In this document: positions 425 through 38,700 of the stretch, in pieces
Layout: the number at the start of each line of letters is the position of its first letter
Numbering within the stretch: position 1 is the first letter of the stretch
NCBI GenBank assembly: GCA_965153455.1
Contig: OZ234493.1
Location: 19,148,213-19,212,212 of the forward strand
Direction of reading: 5' to 3'
Length of the DNA stretch: 64,000 bases
From: Sphagnum compactum
Lineage: Eukaryota
The notes under the pieces: generated by a model
The model's input: the letters and a program-made list of their open reading frames with translations, nothing else
The model's database searches: none
What the model was told of the DNA's origin: nothing
Translations under genes and position numbers: made by a program

Positions 425-1338
425 TGTCGTAACCCTAGCCTTGGGCTCACGACCAAAGCAAAGGTTTGCAAAGGCGTGGGTCAAGAGTGAAGCTTGGGAG
501 TCACATTTCATGTTCCCAGGAGTGTAGGAAAGTGTGAGGGAATGAACCTTCACACTTCCAAATGAGCTCCCATTTTGCGAGTTGGAGTCCCGGTGGACTT
601 TCGAATTTTTAGAGAACGATTACAAGGGTAAAAAATCATTGGATTGAAAAGTTTTTTACACCATTGAAAATCTCTTGGAACGTAGATGTCTAAAGTGCAT
701 TCCATGACCCATTTGGGTGCTTAAAACACAAGTTATGGCCAAAAGAAGGGCCGGGAGTCAAACTGCCAATTTGACTCTCGAATTAAAAGTCGAGAATTGC
801 TTTGATTTATTTGCATACAGGTGGTGTGCCACATATCGTTGGAAAGCTCTCGACAAGGGTTACAATGTTGCTTTAGAACTCACATTAATCGGAGGTCTGC
901 ACAAAGAGTTATGGGCCTTCAAAGTTGTAGGAGTCTCAATTTCGAGAATTTCGGGATTCTAACTTGGGAGTCGTAGGACAAAATGACATTTTGATGCTGG
1001 CCCCATAGCCAAACACAGAGAAACTATAAAGGGAAAGGTGGTGGCTTCCCCCAAGTCCAGGTCATGGTGAGTCTTGTGAGTCTGTGTTTGCCCGTGGCTC
1101 ATCCGTGCACCAAAAATGTTCCAACTATGCACTAATCGATTTGTTGCTTGGTTTGTGCAAGTCTGTGTGAATAATTGACCCGTTTGTCATTCTTCCTAAT
1201 CCCCATCCCAGAACTCTAGCATGCCCTTCTACCTTCGAAGTGCTGCAAGTCATGGAACGTACCCTAATTTTTTATCTTTCCGTTGTTTTCACATTTGGAT
1301 TCGTAGTTGAATCTACTAAAGAACTTGGGGGTGCGTCA
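425..1338 (+). mobile_element. Solo LTR (about 914 bp) of an LTR retrotransposon family; strand given only relative to the copy at 29728-30632
   Basis: Starts TGTCGTAACCCTAGC and ends GGGGGTGCGTCA (TG...CA, short imperfect terminal inverted repeat). Flanks AATAA/AATCA give a 4/5 target-site duplication. It is colinear with the inverted copy at 29728-30632 and has no internal gag/pol. Confidence 0.8.
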
Positions 1339-3214
1339 AATCATCTTCAAAGCTTTAAGGGATTCAATTTCCAAGTTGTCAATTTTTAAAAAAAACTCAA
1401 TTATAAAAAAATATTTAAACAAAATTTTATTTAATTTTAATGACGAAAATAATTCTAAATCCAATAACTTTTGCTTTGTCATTTCAAAATTGCAAATCAT
1501 TTAATGTGCACATCATCATGCCTTGTCAAAATTTTTGTGATAGTATGAAAAATGCAACAAATAGCCCCAGAGTTTGGGACAATTAAAATGTGATCACAAA
1601 ACAAAACAAATAAAATAAAACAAAGACTAATCTTAACACAATAACCTTTCTTTATAATCATTTTCATTTTAGTCACAATCTCATTTGTGTCACCTATTAT
1701 TTTGGTAACCATCCCTTTTAGTAAGAAACACCATCTTTTAGAGTCACTTTGACATTCATTAATAACACAAAATATTTACAATTAAAAAAAAAACTATAAT
1801 GGGAGAAATTTAAAACAAATATTAGGGTTTATTAAATTATAGTTTCCTTGGGCATTGTTAGTGTTGTTATGTGTTAAGTTGTGCAAACTAACAACAATGA
1901 ATCCAATTGAAGAATTTTTAAATTTTTTTAAATTTTTTTAAAAATACAAATAAACAAAGAATGTGTGAACTTGTCAAGAAAACAAAAAATCTAGTTAACA
2001 AGGTACACAAGCTAATAATTAAAGAGCCCCATTTCAATGTAAATCATAACATTAGAATAGGCAAAAAAACGCAACCTTCTTCAAGTCTAATAATGCAAAG
2101 TAGAGCTTAGAATAAGCTATGTAGAAAATTTAAACAATTGGCACATTTATTCTACCACAATTTGTAAAGTTTTTAACCTATAATCACAATCTTGTAAAGG
2201 TTTATATGGAATGTGATTATACATGTTTAAATCACAATTCGTTAGTGTCACAAAAAAAAAGTGGTCACCAAAGGCATGATTACAAAGGGTGTTTACTGTA
2301 AATGCATAATCACAAGCTAACATTATTTCCCAAGGAGACATTTAATGTAAAGTTTGAGATCTACATGTGTCAAATGACCATTTACAAAGGGTATTAGGTA
2401 ATTGTCCAACCTATTTTTCATCACCTTATCATTATATAAATTTTTAATATATACATATTAAAGCCACTCTATATTAATTATAATCCATTATTTCAGATCA
2501 TTACATACTTTATATTATAATTAAATGAATTATTTGAATAAAATATACCCTATTTCTTAATTAATTAATTAATAATTTTTACTAACAACTAAGATATTGC
2601 ACCTTATATTTACACTCATATATTTTTTATTTATTTTTTACTAGTGTCCCCCCGGGGGTTATTTGACCAATTCTTAGATTTGTACAAGGACTACAATTTT
2701 ATTGCAGAATGGGGTCTTAGAGTTTTTGATAACCAGTGGTCATATATACAATCTGACCTTATTTGATTTTCTGAGAACACTAGTTACACATATGCAAGAA
2801 CCACCGGGATAACCGTTGGTTATTTGCTCGCATGTCTAATAAACTCCTAACAACCGGATAACATGATGCAAAAGAGTGATGAAGTAGTCAGGTGCCGCGA
2901 CAAGGAAAAGGATGTCATAAAGTAGAAGTCCTTATACTAAAGAGCGGATAAATGTTTGAAAGTCTCAACAGCTCAAGAAAAGAAGCAATAGGACCCTAAA
3001 GGAGAGGGAAAGAGAGAAGAGGGAAAGAAAACTAGAGGATGCCTAATTTTTTGCACAACACCAAAATAGGCGAATGCAAGATCACAAGAATTTGGATTTT
3101 AATAACAAAAGCATGATGTTGTTGTAAAGTTGATCAACCAACATTTGAAACTCTGGATTTTTTAACCAATCGGACTATATTGCCACTAACTATAATCAGT
3201 GCAACTAAAACTCT

Positions 3215-3439
3215 TTTTGGTGCTTTTGGCGTCAAATATATGTATTGCCTTTGGTTTTCTTTTCCAAATTGTGAGGGATCATTTACTAAGACTTCTTTTT
3301 GGTGCTTTTGGCATCAAATATATGTAATGCCTTTGTTTTTCTTTTCCAAATTGTGAGGCATCATTTGCTAAGGGCGAAAGCACCAGTTGTTTTTCTTTTC
3401 CAAATTGTGAGGCGTCATTTGCTAAGGGCGAAAGCACCA
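3215..3439. repeat. Nested local tandem duplications (about 82-bp unit x2, then about 54-bp sub-unit repeated)
   Basis: TTTTGGTGCTTTTGGC(G/A)TCAAATATATGTA occurs twice, TTTTCTTTTCCAAATTGTGAGG three times and TTTGCTAAGGGCGAAAGCACCA twice. Confidence 0.8.
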
Positions 3440-4449
3440 AATTCCATTTTATGTTTTGAAGTTGGAAATATGCCTAGGTTGAAAGTAGTTTGGCAATGGG
3501 TGAACTCAAAAAGTAACAATGCCATAGAGACATTCAAGATACCATCTATTCAAAAGAACAATACCTTTGCCAGCCCCAGGGGAAGAAATTCTCAATCATG
3601 TTCACTATGTGGAACTGGGATCATCTATGTGCTTGTAGCATAGAGTAGAGCTCCTTGTTTTGATCACCACTCTCAAATGGTTTCTTCCTTCAAAGGTTCT
3701 GATGGGCAGGATTAAGATTTTTTCTCTAACCCTTAACTCGGCCACCATATACAACAAACTGAATCTCAAATATCTAATTCCGGACCTTAATGACCTAACC
3801 ATGGAAGTTCGTTTGCCTCCTTCCAAAATTTCCCATTTGCTTTTCTCTTTCCAATGGACATATTCATGAGGATTTGATATTGTTAATGTGCATCTTTGCT
3901 GATTAATTGGAGCCTACATGTATACTACACCACATTTATATGAGCTGTCCACAATAGCTTTCACTGGGTTTCATGATCAAGTTTGCTAACTTAATACTAC
4001 AATCTGGTCTCTGTTATGCCACTTTGTGCAAGATGGCCAGCATAATTGCAACGTTTCTTAGTGAGAGTCAACTCAGCCTGTTTTTCCAGTTATTCCCCTT
4101 TTGCATGGTTATAACTTACAATCCCTTACCTCAAATTGTATTTTCAAGCAAAATGGTTCAAAGTTTAATCCACTTGTTACTGTCCAAATCTGAAGTTTGA
4201 AATCTTACCAAGACTATGATTTGGCTACCCAAAACATTAAGTCAACTTGAGACTGACCTTTGTTATTATAAGTTTTGTTAATATACACCCAAGTTTGAGA
4301 AATTTACAAGATTAACATTTAATAGTTAGATTTAAATTTGCCAGGGAAAGAAGTTTGACCATTGAAAAAAGTACCTATTTTGTGTATAAAATGGCAAACA
4401 TAACATACCATTCCACACTGAACTTCAAGTCGCAGCTAACAGCTTTCTT

Positions 4450-6340
4450 CAATAAACAGCTTCATTCTCTTCTCCATCAACCTCCACTTTGTCTGAATCA
4501 TCGAGAAATGGGCTTGTGCCATCCAGTTCTTTTGCACTCCAAACCTCGTTTGCAATCTCAGCATGTGGATTATCACCATCATGATCTCTAAGTGTCGTTG
4601 CCTCTTCACCATCTTTCACATTCAAGCAACAGCATCAAAAATTGAATATGCACAAAATTGTTCGTCATAAGATTGAACACGGTTTTAAAGTGTGAGTGCC
4701 CCAAAATTCTGAACAATTCATCACTATGGCAGTTTCCAAAGAAGCATGATAAAATGATCAGCTGATTTTCATCAGGAGTTCCCTTCTGAATCTGTACACT
4801 ACAAAACAGCATGTAATAACACATTGCAGTATACTAATAATACTATGTACCAAAGATTCCAACAAAGAGCAAAGTCTTTATACCCAGCACATCTTTCTTT
4901 TTGAGAAATTCTTTAGAGGCATTGTCAAGAGCCCTAACCTCTTGATTTTCCATCCTGGATTCCAAACTGGAGCTCTGATGTGGCACCCCCGATTGTCTGC
5001 CCTGATTCTACTGAATCCTGGAATGGTTCCTCTGTATCACTGATCTGCTTTGCGGCATCTTGCTTTACACTTCCCAGAAATTGCTCCCTTCCATCTTGCT
5101 GCACACTTAAGATCAGAAGCAACTTAGGGACTTTTCTCTCAACCCACACAAAAGAATTGGTAGCCTACAATTACAAACCAAGATCTTCAAATACAAAACC
5201 TTGACCAGAAAATCTGTCTTAATCTGTGCAATTAGCATTCCAGAAATGCCACATTTGCGTAGAAGCTAGAATCCACTACCTTCTCCAAGTATTAGATAAG
5301 GAAATGAGAAAGACAAATCAACTGTTCATCCAAACCTTGAACTATTATTTGGAGCTAACCTCAGATTTAGCAGAAGGCAAGTGCAGTCCACGCTCCGCGA
5401 ACCTGTTGCCTCCTCCCTTAAAGCTCCCAACACCCATACACCTCACTCCTCCAAATTCTGAGCTCCCAATTCTACAAGACTTTGAGCGCAGTAATGGTCC
5501 TTCTCTCTTAACTCTTGATGAATCCTCAGAGTATGCTGCGGGAATGGATCCTTCAATACTCTTCAACAGACTGAACGCCTGTATTTGCACACTGAATTTT
5601 TCACCCTGCTTTCTGGGTTGAGGAAAACCATTCCTTGTGAAGCTGGGGACTTCGGTTGCTGTCTGCAAACATTGTGAGGAGGAGATGGGTCTAGAAACCA
5701 AACCCTGCAGCCCCATTCTCTGTTGCAGTGACACCAATCTGCACACCAATGACTTGGTCCTCATCACTGCAAGAGTTTGTGAAGCAAAATTCCCTGTTCC
5801 AAAAGCAAGAAAGCAATCGAGGACTCTCTATTCTCTTCTCTGAATTGGCTGACTTTCTGCCTCCAACTTCTTCTGGTTTGATCTTTCTTTCAGATTTGAG
5901 ATAAAATCTCTGTCACTTACATATCAATACCTTGTTGATTTGCACCATGGATATTTTGCTCATCACTGCCTTTCGAAGGGTTTCAGACCTTCAAAGACTG
6001 ACTCACTCTATGTTGCAGAAAATTCCTTTGAAACATACAAAATCGAACTCTTACCTTGCTGATGCAATTTGCAACTAGTATACCAACCTTCAAAAATAAA
6101 ATCTTGCAAATAGAATCGACAAATCTGACACTCAATTCTCCCTCTCAAAATACCCAAGATGAACCTTCTTTGTGACTTCACAAGTCCTCCCAGCAACCTC
6201 CCCAAGAAGATCTCGTCTCTTCCTCCCCTCTCCTCTCCTCTCCTCTGTCTGCAGAATGCAGGTATTGAGAGACTTAACTTGGAAGTTTTTCTTACTAAGA
6301 AAATCCTACACCTCAAAGAGTGAACTATTCTTCTTCCCAA
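4450..6340 (-). pseudogene. Possible degenerate multi-exon gene of unknown product
   Basis: Minus-strand coding-like blocks with plausible AG/GT boundaries (e.g. ..gtgcag|CAAGATGGAAGG near 5100, acidic DGEEATTLRDHDGDNPHAE near 4610) are broken by stops and frameshifts. No family recognised. Confidence 0.3.
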
Positions 6341-24500: not shown

Positions 24501-27500
24501 AGATTAGTTACCAACTCCAACCTAACAATGGGTCACCTTGGCCCTCATCTTTGGCTCTTTTATTGTGTATCTTTTAGTTAATAAAATTAAGGTGTTTGTG
24601 GATTTGTGAATGAGACAACTTATAGTTGTGGAAGGTTTCATTTTTTGTGGTTTAATTTTGGCTTATTATTACATTATGCTAAAAGTCTTATGAAGGTTGG
24701 CATTCCTACACAAATTATGAAGTTATTATTGTCTTTCCTTTTTGTTGTCTATCTCCTATTACACAAATATTGATAATTGGAACGTTCCTCATGTTGTGTG
24801 TTCATGTCATTTCTTGAAAAAAGTTAGGTTGACCACATATAATAGGGGTTATTGCCAATAATTCATTTGCCAGAAATGAAGTAGTTTCGGTACATGTGGT
24901 AGGAGGTCTTGAAACAATCATGCATTTGTCAGTGTTTTAGTTCCACTAGGTTATATACGTTTCAAGGAATTCTACCAATAGGAAACTCATCTGCAAGTTG
25001 ACAAAATTGCGTCCCTTTCAGGGGTTTGGGGCTAGGCATGGATCCGGATATTTTTAGTGAAAAAATGATTTTTTTGTTGGACTTCAGTTTAGAGCTTCAG
25101 GGGACTTTAATCGTTGATCAATTGTCATGATCAATGATTAGCTAGTGGATGGTGACTAAGATCATCTCACTAATGGATGGGTTTCTCTTCTTTTTACTCC
25201 TGCCATTGTTGTGCTACTGTCCTTGTTGTGTTGGTGTATGACACAAGCAAGTAAACCTATGGCTAGCATGCATGCATTTGCTTGAGGACACATGTTTTTC
25301 ACCTTCACTTTTAGTTTATCCATTATTGTTACTCTTCCTTTTAAGATTGGAAGTGGGGTATGTTGGCCATTTGGGTGTAATCACAAGAATTGGAGGATGG
25401 ATTTTCAGAGTTACTAGGGTTGTTAACACTAGCCTTTGGGGAATGTGGAGTTCCATTGGTTGGTGTTCTGGATGTGGGGTTTGGGGATCATTTGAGCTTA
25501 GAGTTGTTATAGTAAATTGCAATCCTAATTTTCCAAAAGAAGTTTAGGTCACTAAGACATTTGCCATACTTGGATTGTCCTTTTAACTGCTACAAACTTA
25601 TTATGGCTTTCGGCTCTTATTTGTTGCTTGATATGTGGCCAAAATGTTGTGATTGAGATTTAGTGATGTTGTTGCTTGGGATGTAATGATTTTTGGGGTA
25701 TGTGAAATTTGAGCAAGGGCAGAAGGTGTTGCAATATTTGGACTATGGGGATGACATCATTTTCCTAATAATTATGAATATGTGCTCATGACACATAAGG
25801 TGTACAAATGCATGTGATGCATCAAAAGACTTTCAAGCATGAGACATGGTGAACACCATTATTATTGCAAGGAGATCATTGATGTGTGTAATGTTTCATT
25901 TAGTTTTTTTCTTCAGGTAGCGCAAATTGTTTTATGATTTAGCAACAAGAATCTACCATTGCCCTTGTTTTCACAGCACCATGATTTAATAATCCTATTT
26001 CCATGCATCTAGTGTTTATTTTAATTTTTATATCCCTCTTTGGTCATTGACTTTCTCATTTTGTAACATCCAAGTGATGGACTTAATCAAGCACACAACT
26101 AGATGTAACTGATAATATGCAACTTTACATTTATGTGCAAATTTGCTGAACTTCTTGTGATCCTTTCACAAGTAAATATTCATCCATAACTCTCTCTTGT
26201 AGCCATTTGAGATACATGATAGTTTTTTTCTCCAAAAATAACTTTTAATTCATTCAATGCAAGCGTACCTAAAATTGTATCTAGGTATGCCAATTTTACT
26301 CAAATGGAGTCATTGTTCATATTGTTGTTCTATTGTGGAAGAGGTTGCGGCTGACCTAAAGAGGAAGTTGGCACAAGCTTTCACAAAATTTGAATACTTT
26401 TTCAGTTTCTTTTCCCCCTCCTATCATCTTTGCTGCCAAAAGAGTATGTGGTTGAACTAAGGATAATCGGTTGGCTCAAGCTTCCACATATTATTTGTCT
26501 GTTTTTTTCATCCTCCTTTTGTTTATTGCTACTCTTGGCATCTTTGCTATCAAAAGGGCTATGGTCAAGCTAAAGAAGTGGGTTGATGTAAGATTCAATA
26601 CATTTGAACATTTTTGTTTTCCCTTTTCTTGGCAATTTGTTTGTTGTTGTTTCATCTCCATTGCCATAGGTGTTATGGCTAAGTTGATCAGACAATCTCG
26701 CAAGTTCTGATGTGTTTTCTTTTACTTGGTTTTGTTTTGTTTTGTTTGTCATCCATTTGTGGCTACTCCTACCATCTCAAAATGGGTAGGTTTTGAGTGA
26801 GCTAATGAAATGGGTGATGTTGATGATCAATTTTGATATGTATATATTTGAATCATTTTTAACACAGTTGCAATGCATTTTGAGAGTTGGAATATGTTCA
26901 TGTGAGATAGATAGTAAGGATATGAGGACTACCAAATGAACATAATTCAACCTTATGTCGTATATAGACAAGGGCAACAAAATATTATCGATGCACATTT
27001 CAAATGTTCAATTCAAGAGGTGAAATCAATTAACCCTTCACATAGGTATCCATGAAGTAAAATTGTGGTAGTTTTATTTTTATTTTACTCACAAGATACT
27101 CAACAACAAAATCCTTTATTCTGAAGCTTAAATTTCAAACCATTAGCAAATAGATGGATGACACAATTTTTCGTCCCCAAAACATCCACATTCAAATCAT
27201 GTTGATAAATGGTAAATGATAAAAAGGAGAAAACACACATGATGATTGTTAGATTTGGTGCATTGCTTTGACCAGTAGTAGGAAAAGTTGAAGAGAATTC
27301 AGATCTACCTTGGGTGAGAGACAAATGCACCAAACATCTTCATTGGGAAGAAAAACATAATGATAAAAAATGTAAATAACCTTTCAAAAAAATTCCATGC
27401 ATTTTTCAATCATTTCTCTTAGTGAAATGTGACATTTCAAAATATAAATTAACCTTCTTCCATTGGGGTTGATCCCAATTTGATTAGGAAAGATACTTTT

Positions 27501-27700
27501 CACTTTGTAAGGTTCCTAGAATTTAAAAAATTCTTAAAGTGATGAGTTTGGATAGAGTTTTAGATTTAGTTTGTTCTTTTCAAATTTCCCTATTCTAAGT
27601 TCCTTGTGTAAAGTAAAGACCTAAGATAGGGGCATTCTCAAAATAAGGGGTCTAGGATGAAGCAATAGCCAAGTCGAGCCCCACATTTTGGGAATATCCC

Positions 27701-28444
27701 CACCCATGGGCTCTACCGACCATAAAACATGACGCAAAATTTATCATGAACCAAATCTATATAGGTCATGAAGCATAGGAGTGAGAGGGATATTATGCCT
27801 ACTTTTAGGTGTAATAACCCTCCCACTTTTGGGTAGTACGCATAATATCCCTCCCATTTTCGAGGAGAGAATTTGATGCAATATAAGGTGCCTTCCAAAT
27901 GCATTAAATTTTTTCTCAGAGTGTTCTATGTAAATGTAAATGCCAAGGCTTACAAAACCACCAGGGTATATTAGAAAGAGGGTGGTAAACTCCTCATGAA
28001 TGTATATGCAAGAGGGTGACAAACTCATCATAAATGTAATGCAAAATTTGACAAAACCACCAAGGTATGGAAAGAAGGTGGCAAAGTTCTCATAAATGTA
28101 AATGCCAAGTGGTACAAAACCACCAAGGTATGAAAAGGTGTTCCCATCAAATATATAAATGCCAAGAAGTTTTGTGATAAGAAATAGGTCTCATGCATAA
28201 GTAGGTAGATAGGAAAATAATAACTATTAGGTAAGTAGATGGTTTATTTATATATATGTAAAGGTTGTTTTTACTACCTACTTATTAACAACGTGCTTAT
28301 GGGTTGTTAATAGGAAGGTAGGGGAAAAAAACAACTAAGGTAACCACCATGGTTAGCTAGGGAATTGAAACTCAACAAAAAAAATTTCCTAACCACTTAT
28401 CATTCATCTTTCATGGTGCACTGGTGGGTGTTGGTTCATTGTGG
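27701..28444. mobile_element. Non-autonomous DNA-transposon-like element whose right part is shared with 49747-50009
   Basis: 28180-28444 is colinear with 49747-50009 (TAGGTAAGTAGATGG..TTTTTACTACCTAC..AAGGTAACCACCATGGTTA..GGTGGGTG(T/C)TG..TTCA(T/C)TGTG). Internal repeats TAAATGTAAATGCCAAG..ACAAAACCACCA lie at 27930-28160. The left boundary is tentative. Confidence 0.5.
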
Positions 28445-28884
28445 CCAAGAAGGTAAGGAAGCACCAAACATCAACAACCATAGAAGGTGCAAGCTCTTAA
28501 TCAATCCAATAGACTAAAAGTATTTTGCTCTAATGATCAATAGTAATGGCATTTCGCATTGTTACTAATAATGCAATCTTCATTTGGGAAGATAACGATT
28601 TACATTTGGGAAGGATTGATCATCGACGGATTGATATGTTGTCCCACATGAATCGCATCTTGTTTTATTTTCTTTGTCGATTATATTTAATTCCAATGTT
28701 GTGAAGAAAAGGATGTAAGCAATAGGCTTATCCATAAGCTTGCCTAAATCTTCTATGTAAGAGGAGATCATGACTCGAACAACCTTTAGAACTTGTCTTT
28801 CAATAATTGTTTCTTCTTTTTCTTGGACCTCTAATAAAGAAAAACCCAAGGTTTGATTTGAGTGTTAGAATTCAGACACGAAGT

Positions 28885-30962
28885 ATGGAGGACCAAGCTT
28901 TAAGTGTAGCTCTAGAAGCCATGAGGAAAGGCCAGTGCATTGCAATTATGGACTCAGATTCCAGGGAGGCCGAAACTAACCTTTTCTTCTTAGCAACTTC
29001 TCTTTTTCCGCTTTTTCTAAGAAGTCTAAGGACTACATCATGAAGGGAGATGTACATCTCTATGGCTCATGAGGTCACTTTTACCTTTGGTTTCTCTTTC
29101 ATTGGAGAGGTACCCATTACCCCACCCACAATTCTTCTTCTTTTATTTCCAGCAAACTCCCATCATTTCCACGTTTTGAGCTTCTTGCAGAATTAGTTGG
29201 GAGCTTGGTTTTTAACAAAATTTATGGAGTAATTATCTAGCTAGGGTTTCCTTTAGCTCTATTTGGATTATCTAGTGATGAGTTCCTATGACAATACAAA
29301 CTTAATTATTTACCTAATTGAAAAACACTCAGGTTTTCGCACTAAATGTGTCAAACTTAAGAATCTATAAACAAGCTTACAAAGCACAAAACAATAATGC
29401 AAGATCAACATCCATCCATGAAAACCTTAAACCTTAATCAATTGATCTTGTACTATGTCAATGCTTGAAAAAAACCCTAGCCATGCATTATTTTGAGGAT
29501 TTTAGTCATTGATTCCAACGAATTGTGGCAAGCAAGGAAAATGAGAATAAGTATTTGGAAGTTGGAAACTATGACCCCCTTAGGTACATTAGCTTAAATA
29601 AGATACTCAAAAAAATTGCACGTATGTTCATGAAACAAAACTATGGAAACGCATTTCAACCAATCAAAGGGTGTTTTACTTTGACATGTATTAAATGTTA
29701 TAAACTTAATGGAGAATTATCTAATATTGACGCACCCCCAAACTCCTTGAAAGATTCAAATGCGAGTCCAAAGGTGAAAACAATGAAAAAAAGAGTTGGG
29801 GTATTTTCCCTTACTCGCAACATTTCAAGAGTAAGAGGGGCGTGTTGGAGCTTCAAGATGGGGTCTAAGACAAGTAACAAACAGGTTAATTATTCACACA
29901 AACTTACACAAACTAAACAACAAGTTGGTTAATGCATAGTTGGTGCATGGACGAATCACGGGCATACATGAACTTACAAGATTCACCATAGCCCGGACTT
30001 GGGAGAAGCCTCCACCTTCCTCCTTATAGTATTCTCGATGATTAGCCACAAGGTTGCATTCAAAAGTCATTTTTCCTAGGACTCCCAAGTTGAAAGTCTT
30101 GAAATTTTCGAAATTGGGACTTTTTCATTTTGGAGGCCCATAACTTATTGTGTAAACCTTCGACTAACGTGAGATTTAAATCAAAGTTATAATTCTCGTC
30201 AAGATCTTTCCAACGATATGTGGCACGTCACTCAAACGCACATATTTCAGAGCGATTCCTGACTTTTAGTGGTCAGGAGTCAAATTGGCACTTTGACTCC
30301 CGACCTTTCTTTTGACCATAACTTGTGTTTTAAGTACTCAAATGGGTCATGCGAGCCCATTTTAGACATTTAAATTTCAAGAGCTTTCCAATGGCATAAG
30401 GAATTTTTTAATCCAATGAATTTTGACCCTTGAAATCACTCTTTGAAAACTTGGGACTCCATAGGGATTCCAACTCCCAAAGTGGGAATCCACTTAGGAG
30501 TGTGTGGGTTTATTCCCTCACACTCTCACTCACACTCCCGGGAGTGCAAAATGTGACTCTTGGGTTGCATTCTTGACCCACACCTTTCCATGCCTTTGCC
30601 TTGGTTACGAGCCCAAGGCTAGGGTCGTGACAAATATTGCATCACATGTGAAAGGAGAAGAAGCAAATGTGCCAAAGCTCGTGCTCAATGGGATTTTTAC
30701 TTGATGACAAGACTTGAAAATTAGTGCCCTTTATGTGGAGAGAAGTTTCACATGTTGTCAGGTTTTAGGGCTTCGGCGGGAGGTTGTGAACTTCAAGAAT
30801 GAAGTTGACAAAGAAGAAACAGCTAGGCTGTTTGGTGAGGAGTTTCATACCCTAGGCCACATCTTTTTGTGCATTGAGGATGCGGGTGGTCTACAAGTGG
30901 GAAATAGACAGACCAAACTTTCAGTGGCTTTTGCAAAATTGGTAGGCATTATTCCTATTTTA
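28885..30962 (+). pseudogene. ribB: Monofunctional 3,4-dihydroxy-2-butanone-4-phosphate synthase (RibB) pseudogene with archaeal-type signatures, interrupted by a solo LTR
   Basis: Exon 1 (28885-29109, GT donor) reads MEDQALSVALEAMRKGQCIAIMDSDSREAETNLFF..LRTTS*REMYISMAHEVTFTFGFSFIGE. After the LTR come MCQSSCSMGFLLD and, after a frameshift, VERSFTC..FGEEFHTLGHIFLCIEDAGGLQVGNRQTKLSVAFAKLVGIIPIL|gt. The motif order matches DHBP synthases (D..RExE, DRxxT, F..PGH, R.GHTE). Confidence 0.75.
29728..30632 (-). mobile_element. Solo LTR (905 bp), same family as 425-1338, inverted
   Basis: TGACGCACCCCC...GGCTAGGGTCGTGACA, with a perfect 5-bp target-site duplication AATAT (29723-29727 and 30633-30637). 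Confidence 0.9.
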
Positions 30963-32039
30963 GTATGTCAAAATCCTTTCTATAAAACCTCAAGCATTCC
31001 AAAGTTGTTAAGTTAGCATATTCCTTTTTTTGGTGTCACAAAAATGTTGTTTGGTTGTTTCATGGGCTTGTTGATGATGTTTACTAATTTCAATTTCTTT
31101 TGAATTGAATATAAAAAATGGGGTCATTACATAATGAGCTTGGTTGTGCCTTTTCACAATCCATAAGCATTTACAATCTGATCTGAATTGTACTAATTTA
31201 CAAATGTCATCTAAATGTAAAAATGTTTTAGGGCCCTGAACCTTGAAACTTTTTTCAATGCCAAATTTCTTCTAATAAGGAGCTGGGTGAAAAGTCACAT
31301 CCTAATGCGAATAATGTTGTTTTGGAAGCTAATTCATTTTTGCCCACCATCTATCATGGAACCTAGGATTTGAATGTTTCCGACAAATCATCAATTAACT
31401 TGATAGTTTTCAAAATCTAATTATTGAGGTCTTTCAAACATAAGGAATATATTTTCATCATTATGGGTTTGTTGGCTTTGATAACCTCAATAAATATTTG
31501 TTTCTTAAAACCGGAACCATGCATATATACCAATGTTTGTAGAGCATGGCACAATGGTTGTTGTCATGCTTTCTAAGTAGCACTTGCAATCGAGGTGTTG
31601 ACATAGTATGTAAAAGTGCCCAACATTCATTTTTTGCCTTTCAACTTGTAGGTCATAATCAAAAGATAGTCCCGATGTGCACTTGCAACAAAAACATTGA
31701 TCCCAATCTCAATGTCATCCATCCATGTGTGATCTATCATCCATCACTATTTTTTGTAATTGACCAAAATAGTTGAACATAGGACACACCACCCTGAGAT
31801 GCTTGACTAGAATTCAACTATAATTCAATTGTAGACCATGGGGGTGTTAAGAATATTCCATGAACTTCAAAATAGTTGGTTTTCGCCTTCATTTGTGCAC
31901 CAAAAGAATAGGTGGTTCAATTTACTTTGCAATTGTGAATAAATTTTAAATATTCAAAAAATTACAATTGAAATGTAGTTGAAGATGATGTCAAGTTGAA
32001 TGCGAGTTGGTTGAAAAAGAGGGGTTTCCTACTAATGAT

Positions 32040-35000
32040 TCAATTGGCAACAGATGAAGGTAATTATTTCAAATTGAAACACCTTAACAAATTAAGTTCC
32101 TTGAATGCATTAAATTGGCCTATAAACGTAAGTAATTCCTGCAAGCTCGTACAAATTAAGTTCACACAACTAAAACTTTTGGAGTGCATTTAATTGACCA
32201 ATGTACATGTAAGTAATTTTTGCAAGTTGAAACGTTCACACAAATCAAGATTTTCAAGTGCACTCAATGACCAATAGATGAAAATGGTTTTTTCAAGTTA
32301 GAACACTTTGACAATTGAAGCTTTTGGAATGTACCCAATTGACTAATAGATGAAAATACTTATTTCAAGTTGGAACACCTTGACAAATGAAACACTTTGA
32401 ATGTATTCAATTTGCCCATAGATGAATGTACCTTTTTCACAATGTTTTCAAGTTGGAGAAGTCTTATAAATAAAACTTTTGTAGTGCATTCAATTCATCA
32501 ATTAATGAACGTAGTTTTTTCAAGTTGTCACACCTTGACAAATTAAGTTTTTGGAGTACATTGATTCGCCAATAGATGAACGTAGTTCTTTCAAGTCGTC
32601 ACACCTTGACAAATTAAGTTTTTGGAGTACATTGATTCGCCAATAGATGAACGTAGTTCTTTCAAGTTGTCACACCTTGACAAATTAAGTTTTTGGAGTA
32701 CATTGATTCGCCAATAGATGAGTGTAGTTCTTTCAACTCGGAACACCCTTTCAAATTAAACTCTTGGAGTAGATTGATTGGACAATAGATGAAGGTAGTT
32801 TTTTCAACTCGGAACACCCTAACAAATCAAGCTTTTGAAATGCATTAAATTGGCCAATAAATGAAGGTAGTTCTTTCAAATTGGACCACCATTGTAAATC
32901 AAGCTCTTGGAGTGCATTCAATTGGTCACTAGATGAAAGTAGTTCTTTCAACTCGGAACACCATTGTAAATCAAGCTCTTGGTGTGCATTTAATTGGCCA
33001 ATAGATGAAGGTAGTTCTTTCAAGTTGGAACACCCTGGCAAATCAAACTTTTGGAGTGCATTCAATTGGCCAATAGATGAGGGTAGTTCTTTCAAGTTGG
33101 AACACCTTTGCAAATGAAGCTTTTGGAGTGCATTCAATTGGCCAATAGATGAAGGTAGTTCTTTCAAGTTGGACCACCATGATAAATGAAGCTCTTGGAG
33201 TGCATTCAATTGGCCAATAGATGAAGGTAGTTCTTTCAAGTTGGACCACCATGATAAATGAAGCTCTTGGAATGCATTCAATTGGCCAATAGATGAAGGT
33301 AGTTCTTTCAAGTTGAAACACCCTTGCAAATGAAGCTCTTGGAGTCCATTCAATTGGCCAATAGATGAAAGTAGTTCCTTAAACTCGGAACACCCTTTCA
33401 AATCAAGCTTTTGAAGTGCATTCAATTGGCCAATAGATGAAGGTAGTTCTTTCAAGTTGGAACACCATGATAAATCAAGCTCTTGGAGTGCATTCAATTG
33501 ACCAATATATGAAGGTAGTTCTTTCAAGTTGAAACACCTTTGTAAATGAAGCTTTTGGACTACATTCAGTTGGCCAATAGATGAAGGTAGTTCTTTCAAC
33601 TCAAAACACCATGATAAATCAAGCTCTTGGAGTGCATTCAATTGGCCAATAGATGAAGGTAGTTCTTTCAAGTTGAAACACCCTTGCAAATCAAGCTTTT
33701 GGAGTGCACTCAAATGGCCAAGAGATGAAGGTAGTTCTTCCAAGTTGTAACACCATTGCAAATGAAGCTCTTGGAGTGCATTCAATTGGCCAATAGATGA
33801 AGGTAGTTTTTTCAACTTGGAACACCTTTTCAAATTAAGCTTTTGGAGTGCATTCAATTGGGCAATAGATGAAGGTAGTTCTTTCAAGTTGGAACACTCT
33901 TGCAAATCAAGCTCTTGGAGTGCATTCAATTGGCCAATAGATGAAGGTAGTTCTTTCAAGCTGAAACACCCTTGCAAATCAAGCTTTGGGAGTGCATTCA
34001 ATTGGCCAATAGATGAAGGTAGTTCTTTCAAGTTGAAACACCCTTGCAAATCAAGCTTTTGGAGTGCATTCAATTGGGCAATAGATGAAGGTAGTTCTTT
34101 CAAGCTGAAACACCTTTGCAAATCAAGCTCTTGGAGTGCATTCAATTGGCTAATAGATGAAGGTAGTTCTTCCAAGTTGGAACACCATGATAAATGAAGC
34201 TCTTGAAGTGCATGTAATTGGCCAATAGATGAAGGTAGTTCTTTTAAGTTAAAACACAATGTTAAATGAAGCTCTTGGAGTGCATTCAATTGGCTAATAG
34301 ATGAAGGTAGTTGTTTTAAGTTTGAACACTCTGACAAATTTAGCTTGTGGAGTGCATTCAATTGGCCAATAGATGAAGGTAGTTCTTCCAAGTTGTAACA
34401 CCATTGCAAATGAAGCTTTTGGAGTGCATTCAATTGGCCAATAGATGAAGGTAGTTCTTCCAAGTTGTAACACCATTGCAAATGAAGCTTTTGGAGTGCA
34501 TTCAATTGGCCAATAGATGAAGGTAGTTCTTTCAACTCGGAACACCTTTTCAAATCAAGCTTTTGGAGTGCATTCAATTGGCCAATAGATGAAGGTAGTT
34601 CTTTCAAGTTGGAACACCATGACAAATCAAGCTTTTGGAGTGCATTCAGTTGGCCAATAGATGAAGGTAATTCTTTCAACTCGGAACACCATTGTAAGTC
34701 AAGCTTTTGGAGTGCATTAAGTTGCCCTATAGATACAGGTAGTTTTTTCAAGTTGGAACACCTTTGCAAATCAAGCTTTGGGAGTGCATTCAATTGGGCA
34801 ATAGATGAAGGTAGTTCTTTCAAGTTGAAACACCCTTGCAAATCAAGCTTTTGGAGTGCATTCAATTGGCCAATAGATGAAGGTAGTTCTTTTAAGTTGG
34901 AACACCCTTGCAAATGAAGCTTTTGGAGTGCATTCAATTGGCCAATAGATGAAGGTAGTTCTTTCAAGTTGGAACACCCTTGTAAATGAAGTTGTTGGAG

Positions 35001-35720
35001 TGCATGCAATTGGCCAATAGATGAAGGTAGTTCTTTCAAGTTCGAACACTCTGACAAATTAAGCTTGTGAAGTGCATTCAATTAGCCAATAGATGAAGGT
35101 AGTTCTTTCAAGTTGGAACACCATGATAAATCAAGCTCTTGGAGTGCATTCAATTGGCCAATGGATGAAGGTAGTTCTTTCGAGTAAAAGCACCATGACA
35201 AATCAAACCTTGGGAGTGCATTCAATTGGCCAATAAATGAAGGTAGTTCTTCCAAGTCGTAACATCGTTGCAAATCAAGCTTTGGGAGTGCATTCTTTTG
35301 GCTGATAAATGAAGGTAATTCTTTCAAGTTGGAACACCATGATAAATGAAGCTTTTGGAGTGCATTTAATTGGCCAATAAATGAAGGTAGTTTTTTCAAC
35401 TTGGAACACCCTCGCAAATCAAGCTCTTGGAGTGCATTCAAGTGGCCAGTACATGAAGGTAGTTTTTTCAAGTTGGAACACCATGACAAATCAAGCTTTT
35501 GGAGTGCATTCAATTCGCCAATGGATGAAGGTATTTCTTTCAAGCTAGAACACGATGATAAATGAAGCTCTTGGAGTGCATTCAATTGGCCAATAGATGA
35601 AGGTAGTTTTTTCAACTTGGAACACCCTCGCAAATCAAGCTCTTGGAGTGCATTCAATTGGCCAATAGATGAAGGTATTTTTTCCAAACTTTGGCATTGT
35701 GCCAAGTCAAGTACTTGTAA
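32040..35720 (-). repeat. 72-bp tandem array encoding 24-aa LRRs (41 coding units plus about 10 decayed 3' units)
   Basis: Consensus LQxLxLxxCxxLKELPSSIGQLNA; the plus-strand core GGAGTGCATTCAATTGGCCAATAGATGAAGGTAGTTCTTTCAAG recurs every 72 bp. Units at 32511-32795 have a 71-bp period. Confidence 0.97.
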
Positions 35721-38700
35721 TTATAAACAATAAAATAAATTAGTTGGTAATTTTTGAATCATGCATTTTTTGAGGCACAACCACTTCACGTTATTCAAAT
35801 TTCGCCCTTGGATGAAATTTTCGACTATAGTTGGTGAAGCTTCTGTTAGGTCAACCAACCTAAGGTTGCGAAATCCCTTTGAGCCGATTTGGGACAATGT
35901 AGGCAAATTGACACATTTTTTCAATGACATGCCTTCTAAATTTTCCACCACCTATCACATGAAATGAAAAGAAAAAAGATTATCTATATTAGAAAATTTT
36001 CATCCTAATCCCAATTTTTATCAGAAAAACATTCATTTATAAAATCAAGATTCAAAATTAAAACAGTTGGTCTTGGACTTTTTAAAAAATCATAAAAAAT
36101 CAAAATAAAATTATAGGATTGAAATAGTATAGTGACAACCTCATCCTTTTGTAAATATATATTTGATTTATTTGATTTCCATATAAATCGATTCATAATT
36201 GAAAGTTCCATTGCAATATTTCGACCCATGTCTTGTAATTGTTCATGTATGTACAAGATTCCATCTTCTGCCCACTCAATTAAAGATCTATGTTGTAAAT
36301 TTTGTAATTCAAACTTTGGGTGTTCATAATCTCCACTCCACACTCGACCAATTGTACTTATTTTTAAACCACCAAAAAAACAGGCAATATCAAAAAACAT
36401 GTTTTGATTTTGTTTATCCAAGTCCTCATATGATATCTTTAAAACACTCCAAAGCTCTTCATTATCATTGCCCCCTGTCAAACTTTTCCCACTTTTCAAT
36501 TTGCTCAATGCACCTTCCCACATTTCTAATTCTTTAGTATTGCACAAAAAAGAACCCAATACTTTAAGACTTAAAGGGAGTCCCCCACAAGCTTTTATAA
36601 TCTTCATACATATATCGTTGAAATCCTTTGTTGGAACATGATTTGCATTACCAAATGCATGGAACATAAAGAGTTTTCTTGCTTCCTCTTCCTCAAAAGA
36701 TTTCATGACCATTTTTCCATCTTCACTTACATGAGATTTTAGAATTTGCCAATTTCGACAATTCACAAGTACTCTGCTTTTAGAAGTTGCATTCTTGGCA
36801 CCCTTTTCAATGAGAAGTTGCAAGGATGTAAGGTTCTCCGCCTTGCCAACATCATCCACCACCACTAACACTTTCTTCGATATCATACATTGTCTAATTT
36901 TGTCAAGGGCTTCATTCACATTTTCATCTTCGCATAACCTTTTGCCACACAAATCATGTAGGAGTTGTTTAATGACATCATTAATATCATCCTTTGATTT
37001 CACATCCTCCAAAAAACTAGATTTGTCATATTCGTTGTGGAACAAATGATAGAATTTTTTGCTCAAAGTGGTTTTTCCAATCCCACCCATTCCAACCAAA
37101 CCAACAATAGATTGCTTTTGTAACAGGATGTTTATGTCTTGTGCTTTGTCGATCAACGCCACCTCATGACATGGCAAACTTGGAAGCAATATATTTTTCT
37201 GTCAAAATTCACAAAATATAGGTCATTTATATGTTATCTTTCTTATTTGATAACCAATATATATGACATTGCATATGCGATACACATCAAGTGTGCTATG
37301 ACCTAATGTGTTTCAAAGTACATGAACATATATGAAGTCAAAAGATTTAGATTTGATGTTTTTACTTCCATACATGTTCTCAAACATTTTAACAATATAG
37401 AATAACTTGGATGATCTCTGTTTGGTGGCTTGCAAATTGTCAAATGATTAGCATCCTCAACTATGTAATGGTTGTTGTTTGACAACTGAATAGCTGAGGC
37501 ATGTGGCACTAAAATTCCCTGCATGTGCAAAAGATTAAATTAATGGAATTCATTGACTTCTTTGTTCACTTATGCTTTAACTTATAAACCAAATGGTGGT
37601 GGAAATTATAATTTAATAACTATTGATGTTTGAGTAATAATGAAATATTGTGTACAAGTAATTTCCTTCAACCTTTTGGCAAAAAACCTTATATAAATAC
37701 ATCACAAAGTTATTGGTTTTTAATCTCATGAATCTTACATGCTTTAATGATGTTATGATTTTCCTTGTAATATTTATATGGAATTGATTTGATGAAGGGA
37801 AAATTTAAATTTATTTTTTGATGTTTGAAATCAATCAAATTTCATTTCCATCAATAGTTTTTCATGTAACAAAGTTCATAAAACACATGACCCATTCACC
37901 ACATTAATATATGTAGAAGTATTGAGTACATGATCCCACACAAGTTTTGACAATACGAAAAATGTTCAATTAACGAACCTAGTTGGATAACTTTCAATGT
38001 GATGAAATGAAATCTTACCCAATTTTTGTCGAGTGGTAATCCTTCGCTAAATGCATAAATGTTGAGGTCTTCATGAATGGCATTTTTAAAATCCGTTGAA
38101 AGGTGCTCCATTTGTGAGTTGAAAGATTCTAAATTTTTTAAAAACCCAGATTGGGTTGCATACTTGTTCAATGTGTTGATTCGTTGATGTTTCCAAATGA
38201 AATAATTTGATAGAGATTGGGTGCCACCAACATGTGGTACACTATAAAATACGACACCTTTAACATTGTTCAAAAATGTCTTACAACATTTGTGTACTTT
38301 ATCATCCAAACCATTTTTTGGCCGTTGATATACATGTTTGTGAGCTTCAACCACCAAGCTTTTGAGTACAAGACCTCCAAAACTATAAGCAACTAATGTC
38401 ACCGGTCCATCCCAAAGGGATTGATAACTACAAAATATTCAACAATGCACCAAAATTCCATTATCAACATTGTATTAGAATGACAAATTTATCCTATTAT
38501 ACTTGGGGGCAATTTTCCAATTCACACATGACCTAAGCCATAAGTTCATAATTGATTTGCTTGTCATATGTTGTTTATGGAATCCATTAATACACCTAAA
38601 AAATGTGACAACCATGTTTTGGTAAAACAATTATTATGCACAAGTATGTAGGTGTTTACATTCTTGTGTTAATGTACAACTCATCTTCTATGTGTTACGT

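Follow-up and report, generated by a model that had tools for sequence, protein, structure and literature searches.

A probable pseudogene of the archaeal-type ribB family in Sphagnum compactum, one of many decayed and intron-split copies

The plastid protein RIBA of plants is described by Hiltunen et al. 2012 (PMC3509567) as a bifunctional 3,4-dihydroxy-2-butanone 4-phosphate (DHBP) synthase/GTP cyclohydrolase II. A different plant gene, the ribB of Physcomitrella, is listed in Table 1 of Yue et al. 2012 (Nat Commun, PMC3493653) with euryarchaeotes as the putative donor, and the text of that paper gives only one acquired family from archaea. The archaeal origin of this plant gene family was reported as early as 2012, and the family itself is known. 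Among the titles listed for ribB and transfer into Physcomitrella, the paper of Yue et al. alone was about this gene; no paper joining DHBP synthase and Sphagnum was found, nor, among those listed, one that deals with the Sphagnum copies or tests the plant protein biochemically. Here we describe a member of this family at positions 28885 to 30962 (+ strand) of a 64,000-nucleotide stretch of Sphagnum compactum DNA, called the window below (contig OZ234493.1, positions 19,148,213 to 19,212,212, assembly GCA_965153455.1). A sequence-only reading of the window had taken this feature for a decayed, intron-containing and stand-alone DHBP synthase gene with archaeal-type signatures. The analyses below indicate that it is very probably a non-functional pseudogene, belonging to a large set of decayed copies in the genome of a Sphagnum-like moss.

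The peptides on which that reading was based (IMDSDSREAETN, FGFSFIGE, ERSFT, FGEEFHTLGHIFL and TKLSVAFAKLVGIIPI) are present in stop-to-stop open reading frames (ORFs) of the + strand in this interval. The ORF piece at 28807-29043 matched the Pfam family PF00926 (DHBP_synthase) with an E value of 5.9e-05 and 23.1 bits (profile positions 3-35), and the piece at 30708-31016 matched it with an E value of 4e-4 and 20.4 bits (profile positions 112-155). The pieces were scored separately rather than joined, and each alone lies below the cut-off of 26.4 bits, their positions on the profile being colinear. The Physcomitrium protein P0012 (138.9 bits) and the Sphagnum proteins P0005 (62.3 bits) and P0001 (46.4 bits) all passed this cut-off. 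The only solved structures matched by the window pieces were 1pvw and 1pvy/1snn (E value of 1.8e-05), which we take to be the Methanocaldococcus jannaschii enzyme, and the residue numbers of this enzyme used below were read from the structure alignment (His147 in PGH, His164 in GHTE, and Glu185 in ICE). Of the motifs that the earlier reading had attributed to M. jannaschii, DSDEREGETD and FGKEFRSPGHV were visible in the structure alignment, whereas GIPF was not seen.

Annotated Sphagnum proteins with PF00926 matched the window pieces at 55-68% identity, with E values down to 3e-36. In addition, a protein search returned five longer relatives (four annotated Sphagnum proteins and one JGI metagenome protein), the best of which was 66% identical over 84% of the query. 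Against the NCBIfam ribB equivalogs TIGR00506 and NF004437 (PRK05773), with cut-offs of 177.45 and 262, P0012 scored 144.3 and 127.7, P0005 scored 74.4 and 68, and a window piece scored 20.9 and 16.1, respectively; the marine-group-II-like protein P0109 was also just below the equivalog cut-off, at 175.2. P0012 obtained at most 78 bits on the bifunctional ribBA models of NCBIfam, compared with 144 and 128 on those of stand-alone ribB. The resemblance of the window pieces to DHBP synthase is more than chance, and homology is clear from these comparisons. Judged by its PF00926 pieces, its 1pvw match and its matches to Sphagnum proteins, the window feature is an intron-split, stand-alone RibB homologue of archaeal type, as had been proposed.

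The exon structure was determined by tblastn of Sphagnum proteins on the window and by DNA comparison with 80 related loci. Exon 1 (28885-29109, +) matched residues 1-74 of P0002 at 61% identity (E value of 7e-24). Its ATG at 28885 aligns with the N-termini of the archaeal and moss orthologues, in agreement with the earlier remark that no transit peptide precedes the fold, and the GT donor that follows it at 29110 is conserved in 71 matching loci. Intron 1 (29110-29687, +) was delimited by comparing its acceptor region in an alignment with 78 matching loci; positions 29686-29687, the acceptor dinucleotide, are AT in the window and AG in several paralogues. The 5' part of exon 2 (29688-29727, +), which reads VLNVINLMENYLI..., was recognized from a tblastn match to residues 136-150 of P0003, the empty-site comparison given below and a read-through translation. 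The 3' part of exon 2 (30633-30962, +) was matched by tblastn in two frames (30634-30732 and 30708-30965) and is followed by a GT donor at 30963. The remnant of intron 2 (30963-31246, +) was traced by blastn of the window against the 80 loci, in which homology to the other copies ends at 31244-31246 and resumes at about 31250. At this deletion junction (31246-31250), the remaining part of intron 2 is gone together with the last exon, which encodes the C-terminal ~45 residues (GCVMLCKDG...); the distance between the flanks of the junction is 5.5-6.2 kb in loci L016, L035, and L018, in which they enclose the last exon. The C-terminal part of the Sphagnum proteins had no tblastn match anywhere in the window at an E value below 0.1. 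A candidate remnant of the last exon picked out by eye near 31550-31580 was rejected, since it aligns with DNA 5-6 kb past the last exon in L016, L035, and L025 and tblastn gave no C-terminal match there. Upstream of the gene, short tandem or dispersed repeats of 30-40 bp (families D5-D7) occupy window positions 27900-28200, and several paralogues lose homology with the window near 27457, 27911, or 28031.

The two parts of exon 2 are separated by an insertion of 905 bp with TG...CA ends (29728-30632, +), which resembles a solo long terminal repeat (LTR). It is flanked by a 5-bp target duplication, AATAT, the first copy of which (29723-29727) forms the end of the 5' part of exon 2 and the second of which is located at 30633-30637. 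Empty sites, in which the equivalent of window position 29729 joins that of 30633 directly, were found in L014, L016, L031, L035, L045, and other loci. Another copy of the LTR-like repeat, 75.5% identical, is located at window positions 432-1338 (-), and full-length copies of ~900 bp are present in other loci. No internal gag-pol region between two such repeats was found, and the insertion is best described as a solo LTR on the basis of its TG...CA ends, 5-bp target duplication, empty sites, and dispersed copies of the same length, the label standing for these features only. The LTR that the earlier reading had placed in the locus is real in this sense. Further copies of this ~900-bp family were observed in L006 at 2541-3441 and 4350-5254, and in L006, L009, and L011 an LTR-like copy interrupts exon 1 of another ribB-like paralogue, near the equivalent of window position 28980, which represents an independent insertion into the same gene family.

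The reading frame of the window copy is interrupted by an in-frame TGA in exon 1 (29041-29043), detected both in the translation and by tblastn, by a second in-frame TGA in the 3' part of exon 2 (30649-30651), and by a 1-bp deletion near 30712/30713 in the same part. Given the two TGA codons, the 1-bp deletion, the lost acceptor, the LTR in exon 2, and the lost last exon, no enzyme is therefore to be expected from the window copy, and its description as a decayed copy was borne out. When translated by read-through with X at the breaks, it keeps 11 of the 22 alignable columns that show no variation among 18 sequences, archaeal-type and green; the full invariant set consists of 24 columns of alignment A2, apart from the start Met. 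The metal-site motif GHTE reads RQTK, in which His is replaced by Gln, and T116, G117, and D120 read I, S, and Y, respectively. The metal-binding Glu of the acidic loop is kept (REAE). The corresponding metal-binding residues of the Vibrio cholerae enzyme are given as Glu39 (acidic loop) and His154 (GHTE) in PMC9305975 and PMC5228156. The window copy falls short of a competent DHBP synthase in its metal-site His, in its invariant residues, and in the lack of an uninterrupted full-length frame.

Three loci, L078-L080, are colinear with window positions 25469-33667 in one 8.3-kb block of 85.2% identity. Like the window copy, they carry the LTR, flanked by an identical target duplication, along with the second TGA and the 1-bp deletion, and they share its 3' deletion junction. 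The exon-1 TGA of the window copy is absent from L078-L080, which bear further stops of their own. Since four lesions are common to them, the ancestor of these loci was already broken, ~16% divergence ago, and by this comparison the death of the window copy is old. The window locus and L078-L080 may be either orthologues in two species or paralogues.

RNA depth was 0 over 28882-30949, on both exons, in ~12 in 100 of the polyA raw reads of one run with the same species label, matched at a likeness threshold of 95%. Eighteen RNA reads, 95-99% alike, were placed at 30950-31400 and probably came from paralogues, and coverage by two metatranscriptome contig sets is limited to the LTR repeat and the downstream part at 30950-31400. 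The zero depth is weak negative evidence against expression. As for the DNA itself, a run with the same species label covered all 30 bins of the stretch, and one of the DNA contigs from run X1 extends across the right LTR junction (30581-30849).

A metagenome scan detected 132 relatives of the gene, which came from a few moss-associated samples. Of these 132, the best 80 were analyzed, some of them being the same locus in different samples. A single full-length high-scoring segment pair for exon 2 was obtained from 64 of the 80 loci, which represented 55 distinct DNA versions, 8 stop-free and 47 with stops. The stop-free versions numbered 8 of the 30 distinct ones for exon 1 and 24 of 29 for exon 3. 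The medians of the pairwise Nei-Gojobori ratios of non-synonymous to synonymous substitution (dN/dS) were 0.65, 0.63, and 1.05 for exons 1, 2, and 3, respectively, and were not lower in the stop-free copies (0.58, 0.60, and 0.96). Most of the Sphagnum copies have stops or frameshifts and are evolving nearly neutrally. Of the 13 invariant residues in the exon-2 region, at most 11 are kept by any of the 80 metagenome loci; the top identity to Physcomitrium in this region is 56%, compared with 78% between Physcomitrium and P0014, its closest row in the tree described below. All 9 annotated Sphagnum proteins examined are without several invariant residues, keeping 11-17 of 15-24, and R174 is replaced in all of them. 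The intact paralogue implied by the sequence-only reading was thus not found in Sphagnum among the public proteins, including these 9, and the best 80 of the 132 metagenome relatives. That interpretation is partly supported overall, and it was largely correct as to the nature of the relic. In the Sphagnum lineage, universally conserved residues of the gene were lost, and it came to exist in dozens of copies.

A profile built from four Sphagnum proteins retrieved 91 proteins at an E value of ≤1e-3, which fell into two classes. One class consists of many degenerate proteins from Sphagnum or moss metagenomes, with motifs such as DSKSKEAETD, HTPSHIF, and NGHIELS; the members of the other, 235-290 residues long and well conserved, come from Physcomitrium, Ceratodon, Calypogeia, Selaginella, Mesotaenium, Closterium, and Spirogloea. 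With a second profile, matches were gained in Pedinophyceae sp., Pseudoscourfieldia marina, Tetraselmis, Chromochloris, and Scenedesmus, where the Scenedesmus protein is annotated 'ribB'. Intact and conserved orthologues are thus present in mosses, one liverwort, Selaginella, zygnematophytes, and several chlorophytes. No seed plant or fern was among the named matches of these two profile searches, both of which scored only the 8000 candidates with the most words in common. An exhaustive representative search yielded 245 proteins at an E value of ≤1e-3. A prokaryotic scan with one genome per species yielded 262 relatives of P0012, the best 80 of which all have archaeal titles; at the top were marine 'Methanobacteriota/Euryarchaeota archaeon' metagenome-assembled genomes, Poseidoniales, and Thalassarchaeaceae, with 38-44% identity to P0012.

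A maximum-likelihood tree of 101 rows was obtained by a quick search and rooted on two bacterial-type sequences. Archaea were represented by 43 of the 80 loci (the top 24 and every third of the rest), and plant RIBA and fungal RIB3 sequences were not among the rows. The 34 green rows, including the window copy, formed one clade with a stem length of 1.06 and a support of 100 in the Shimodaira-Hasegawa-like approximate likelihood ratio test (SH-aLRT). This clade was sister to a Poseidoniales-type clade (marine group II; SH-aLRT 94), and both were located inside a larger Thermoplasmatota grouping (SH-aLRT 98). The window copy was placed among 10 Sphagnum rows (SH-aLRT 100, stem 0.43) within the bryophyte and streptophyte part. 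Bacterial-type RibB/RibBA sequences were set apart by a branch with an SH-aLRT of 100, and the window copy does not group with them. The green clade, in this tree, is nested among Thermoplasmatota, and its nearest relative is marine group II (Poseidoniales). The green-specific motif MCQ(G)xC is also present in the window copy, as MCQSSCS.

Of the two origins that the sequence-only reading had considered, an anciently retained archaeal-like gene is supported by one green clade that extends from chlorophytes to lycophytes inside Thermoplasmatota. The pattern would be explained by a single ancient transfer from an archaeon to an alga, followed by intron gain and by loss in seed plants. The chlorophyte proteins P0092 and P0093 (Pedinophyceae sp. 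and Pseudoscourfieldia marina) have N-terminal extensions of ~50-110 residues rich in Ala, Arg, and Ser, unlike the streptophyte members, which begin directly at the fold; localization may therefore differ between the lineages. A divergent eukaryote-like set (P0102, P0247, P0249, and P0251) is 36-39% identical to Prasinocladus and has MVQ in place of MCQ and Val at the Glu185 column.

Glu185 presumably lines the active site. The Glu185 column was Glu in all 80 archaeal loci, in 22 of 22 prokaryote-like representatives, in both bacterial-type sequences, and in 26 further rows with the archaeal-style YD motif (one of them YE). On the other hand, it was Val in 20 of the 22 green rows with a residue there and in 14 of 14 further MCQ/MVQ rows; the two green exceptions appear to have aberrant C-termini. 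The green proteins have the conserved, Cys-containing motif MCQGSCS where archaea have (P/Q/R)YD..S. In the window copy the Val column belongs to the deleted last exon and is unreadable. The replacement of Glu185 by Val in the green members is a new side observation. The green protein is well conserved from chlorophytes to lycophytes, and the intact members keep the metal-site Glu and His as well as the Thr and Asp discussed for the V. cholerae enzyme (PMC9305975, PMC5228156). Term searches in these two papers gave nothing on Glu185.

Since Glu185 is replaced throughout the green clade, the enzymatic function of the intact green proteins is only putative, and the annotation 'riboflavin biosynthesis' of the intact plant proteins should likewise be taken as putative. 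It is conceivable, but less likely than not, that the whole green 'archaeal ribB' family is no longer a DHBP synthase. In that case, an archaeal enzyme would have been put to a new use in algae, either another reaction or a role in binding, and this new role would have become dispensable both in Sphagnum, with the death and multiplication of the gene, and in seed plants, which lack it. A non-plastid step of riboflavin synthesis catalyzed by the archaeal-type ribB, which the sequence-only reading had suggested, is doubtful, since a Glu invariant in archaea is replaced across the entire green family. Riboflavin in the plant would presumably be formed via the canonical plastid RIBA route, in keeping with established knowledge.

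If the window locus were still a working gene, unusual splicing would have to remove the LTR and the stops to give a DHBP synthase active in the cytosol. The ATG, the GT donor of each intron, and a large part of the frame can indeed still be recognized. However, conserved coding blocks are broken by both TGA codons and by the frameshift, intron 1 has lost its acceptor AG, and there is no last exon; 11 of the 22 invariant residues, including the GHTE histidine, are replaced, and no RNA reads from the ~12% of one run were found on the exons, which makes this explanation highly improbable. A recent and separate transfer of ribB from a peat-bog archaeon would suit a moss that lives with abundant archaea, and the acidic-loop motif of the window copy, DSDSREAETN, is more archaeal-looking than those of many Sphagnum paralogues. 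Nevertheless, the window copy and all Sphagnum proteins are located inside the green clade (SH-aLRT 100) beside other bryophytes rather than any archaeon and share the green-specific MCQ motif, 5 of the 7 Sphagnum rows with a residue at the Glu185 column have Val, and the bog Methanobacterium sequences L147, L150, and L156 are far away in the tree. The tree topology therefore excludes a separate recent transfer into Sphagnum, to which we leave scarcely any probability. Contaminating archaeal DNA or mis-assembly would account for the archaeal-type signature itself and for nothing beyond it, and this explanation is as good as ruled out: the introns are of the spliceosomal type, the flanks are of the plant type (the LTR repeat and the neighboring gene described below), paralogous loci of ~84% identity are present in independent moss-associated assemblies, and independent DNA runs with the same species label cover all 30 bins. 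Some observations also weigh against the reading preferred here, that of a dead member of a decayed Sphagnum family of archaeal origin. Eight versions of exon 2 remain open, as do several full-length ORFs annotated in Sphagnum (e.g., P0005, with 226 amino acids), and with a dN/dS of ~0.6 in exons 1 and 2, which is less than 1, some copies other than the window copy may be under weak constraint, past or present. An intact Sphagnum copy is possible, as no whole-genome search was made and the metagenome relatives were ranked by their likeness to a degenerate copy. The RNA test covered only ~12% of one run at its threshold. With regard to the donor, the scan pattern (GHTEL...) pre-selects archaeal-type sequences, and the inference depends on a quick tree with SH-aLRT values only and no bootstrap.

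The mode by which the Sphagnum copies multiplied has to be considered together with the convergent neighbor of the window copy, a gene of the NLR type (nucleotide-binding, with leucine-rich repeats) at 32000-38438 (-), which is not part of the ribB gene. It was recognized from its Pfam matches to LRR_14 (9.3e-112), NB-ARC (8.9e-36), and WHD_ROQ1 (3.1e-12, a Roq1-like winged helix) and contains ~40 very regular leucine-rich repeats (LRRs) of 24 residues, encoded by 71-72-bp DNA repeats. Its N-terminal ORF gave a weak match, below the cut-off, to DUF676 (alpha/beta-hydrolase-like; 7e-4); hydrolase-NLRs of non-flowering plants have reportedly been described (PMC11218826). This gene may itself be broken. 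The LRR ORFs at 32751-35081 and 35082-35720 are in the same frame, with a single stop codon between them. Among the 43 loci whose downstream flank extends for at least 2 kb, an LRR region was found downstream in the same orientation in 9, and the window segment 31250-31940 but no LRR was found in 7 more. Some Sphagnum copies are thus arranged tail-to-tail with NLR genes. In L016 (6623-12212), L035 (4710-10189), and L018 (6631-12801), ~5 kb of extra DNA is present between the last ribB-like exon and the pre-NLR segment. Co-duplication with NLR clusters is a candidate amplification route for a subset of the loci. Alternatively, the copies could have been spread by a transposable element that captured the gene, and not by segmental or tandem duplication with NLR clusters. 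This would fit the presence of dozens of copies that are dispersed and extend over introns and non-coding DNA upstream, as well as the small share of loci with an LRR gene (the 9 of 43). However, the 22 long loci are without common sharp ends (the left limit varies between about −900 and −2600 and the right limit between +400 and +6900, with exon 2 as the reference), and no terminal repeats or target duplications around a unit were found. Furthermore, two annotated copies are near-tandem by their locus tags, and one colinear block of 8.2 kb spans the gene plus the NLR. Capture by a transposable element is considered unlikely.

The window locus alone is a dead gene with no physiological role. 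Its family confirms the published archaeon-to-plant transfer and refines it by the chlorophyte members and by marine group II as the nearest relative, which suggests that the acquisition was older, at an algal stage rather than in 'land plants'. Sphagnum represents a lineage in which the acquired gene decayed yet multiplied to dozens of copies, some of them beside NLR immune-receptor genes.

Among known systems, the Physcomitrella ribB (P0012) is in the same clade as the window copy, and both are stand-alone, without an N-terminal extension, and have the MCQ motif. They differ in that P0012 keeps all 24 invariant columns of A2, whereas the window copy is dead and belongs to a Sphagnum-specific group (stem 0.43). 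The intact green relatives are colinear over the whole protein with what we take to be the M. jannaschii RibB, including REGETD, PGH (His147), and GHTE (His164), at ~31-39% identity; in contrast to this enzyme, the green proteins have Val at Glu185 and MCQGSCS, and the window copy additionally is without the equivalent of His164. The RibB proteins of marine group II (Poseidoniales/Thalassarchaeaceae) are the closest prokaryotic relatives and differ from the green ones in being encoded by intron-less genes and in keeping Glu185, as do all 80 archaeal loci. Plant RIBA has PF00926 and the nominal reaction in common with the family described here; however, RIBA is a bacterial-type fusion protein imported into chloroplasts, whereas the present family is stand-alone and of archaeal type.

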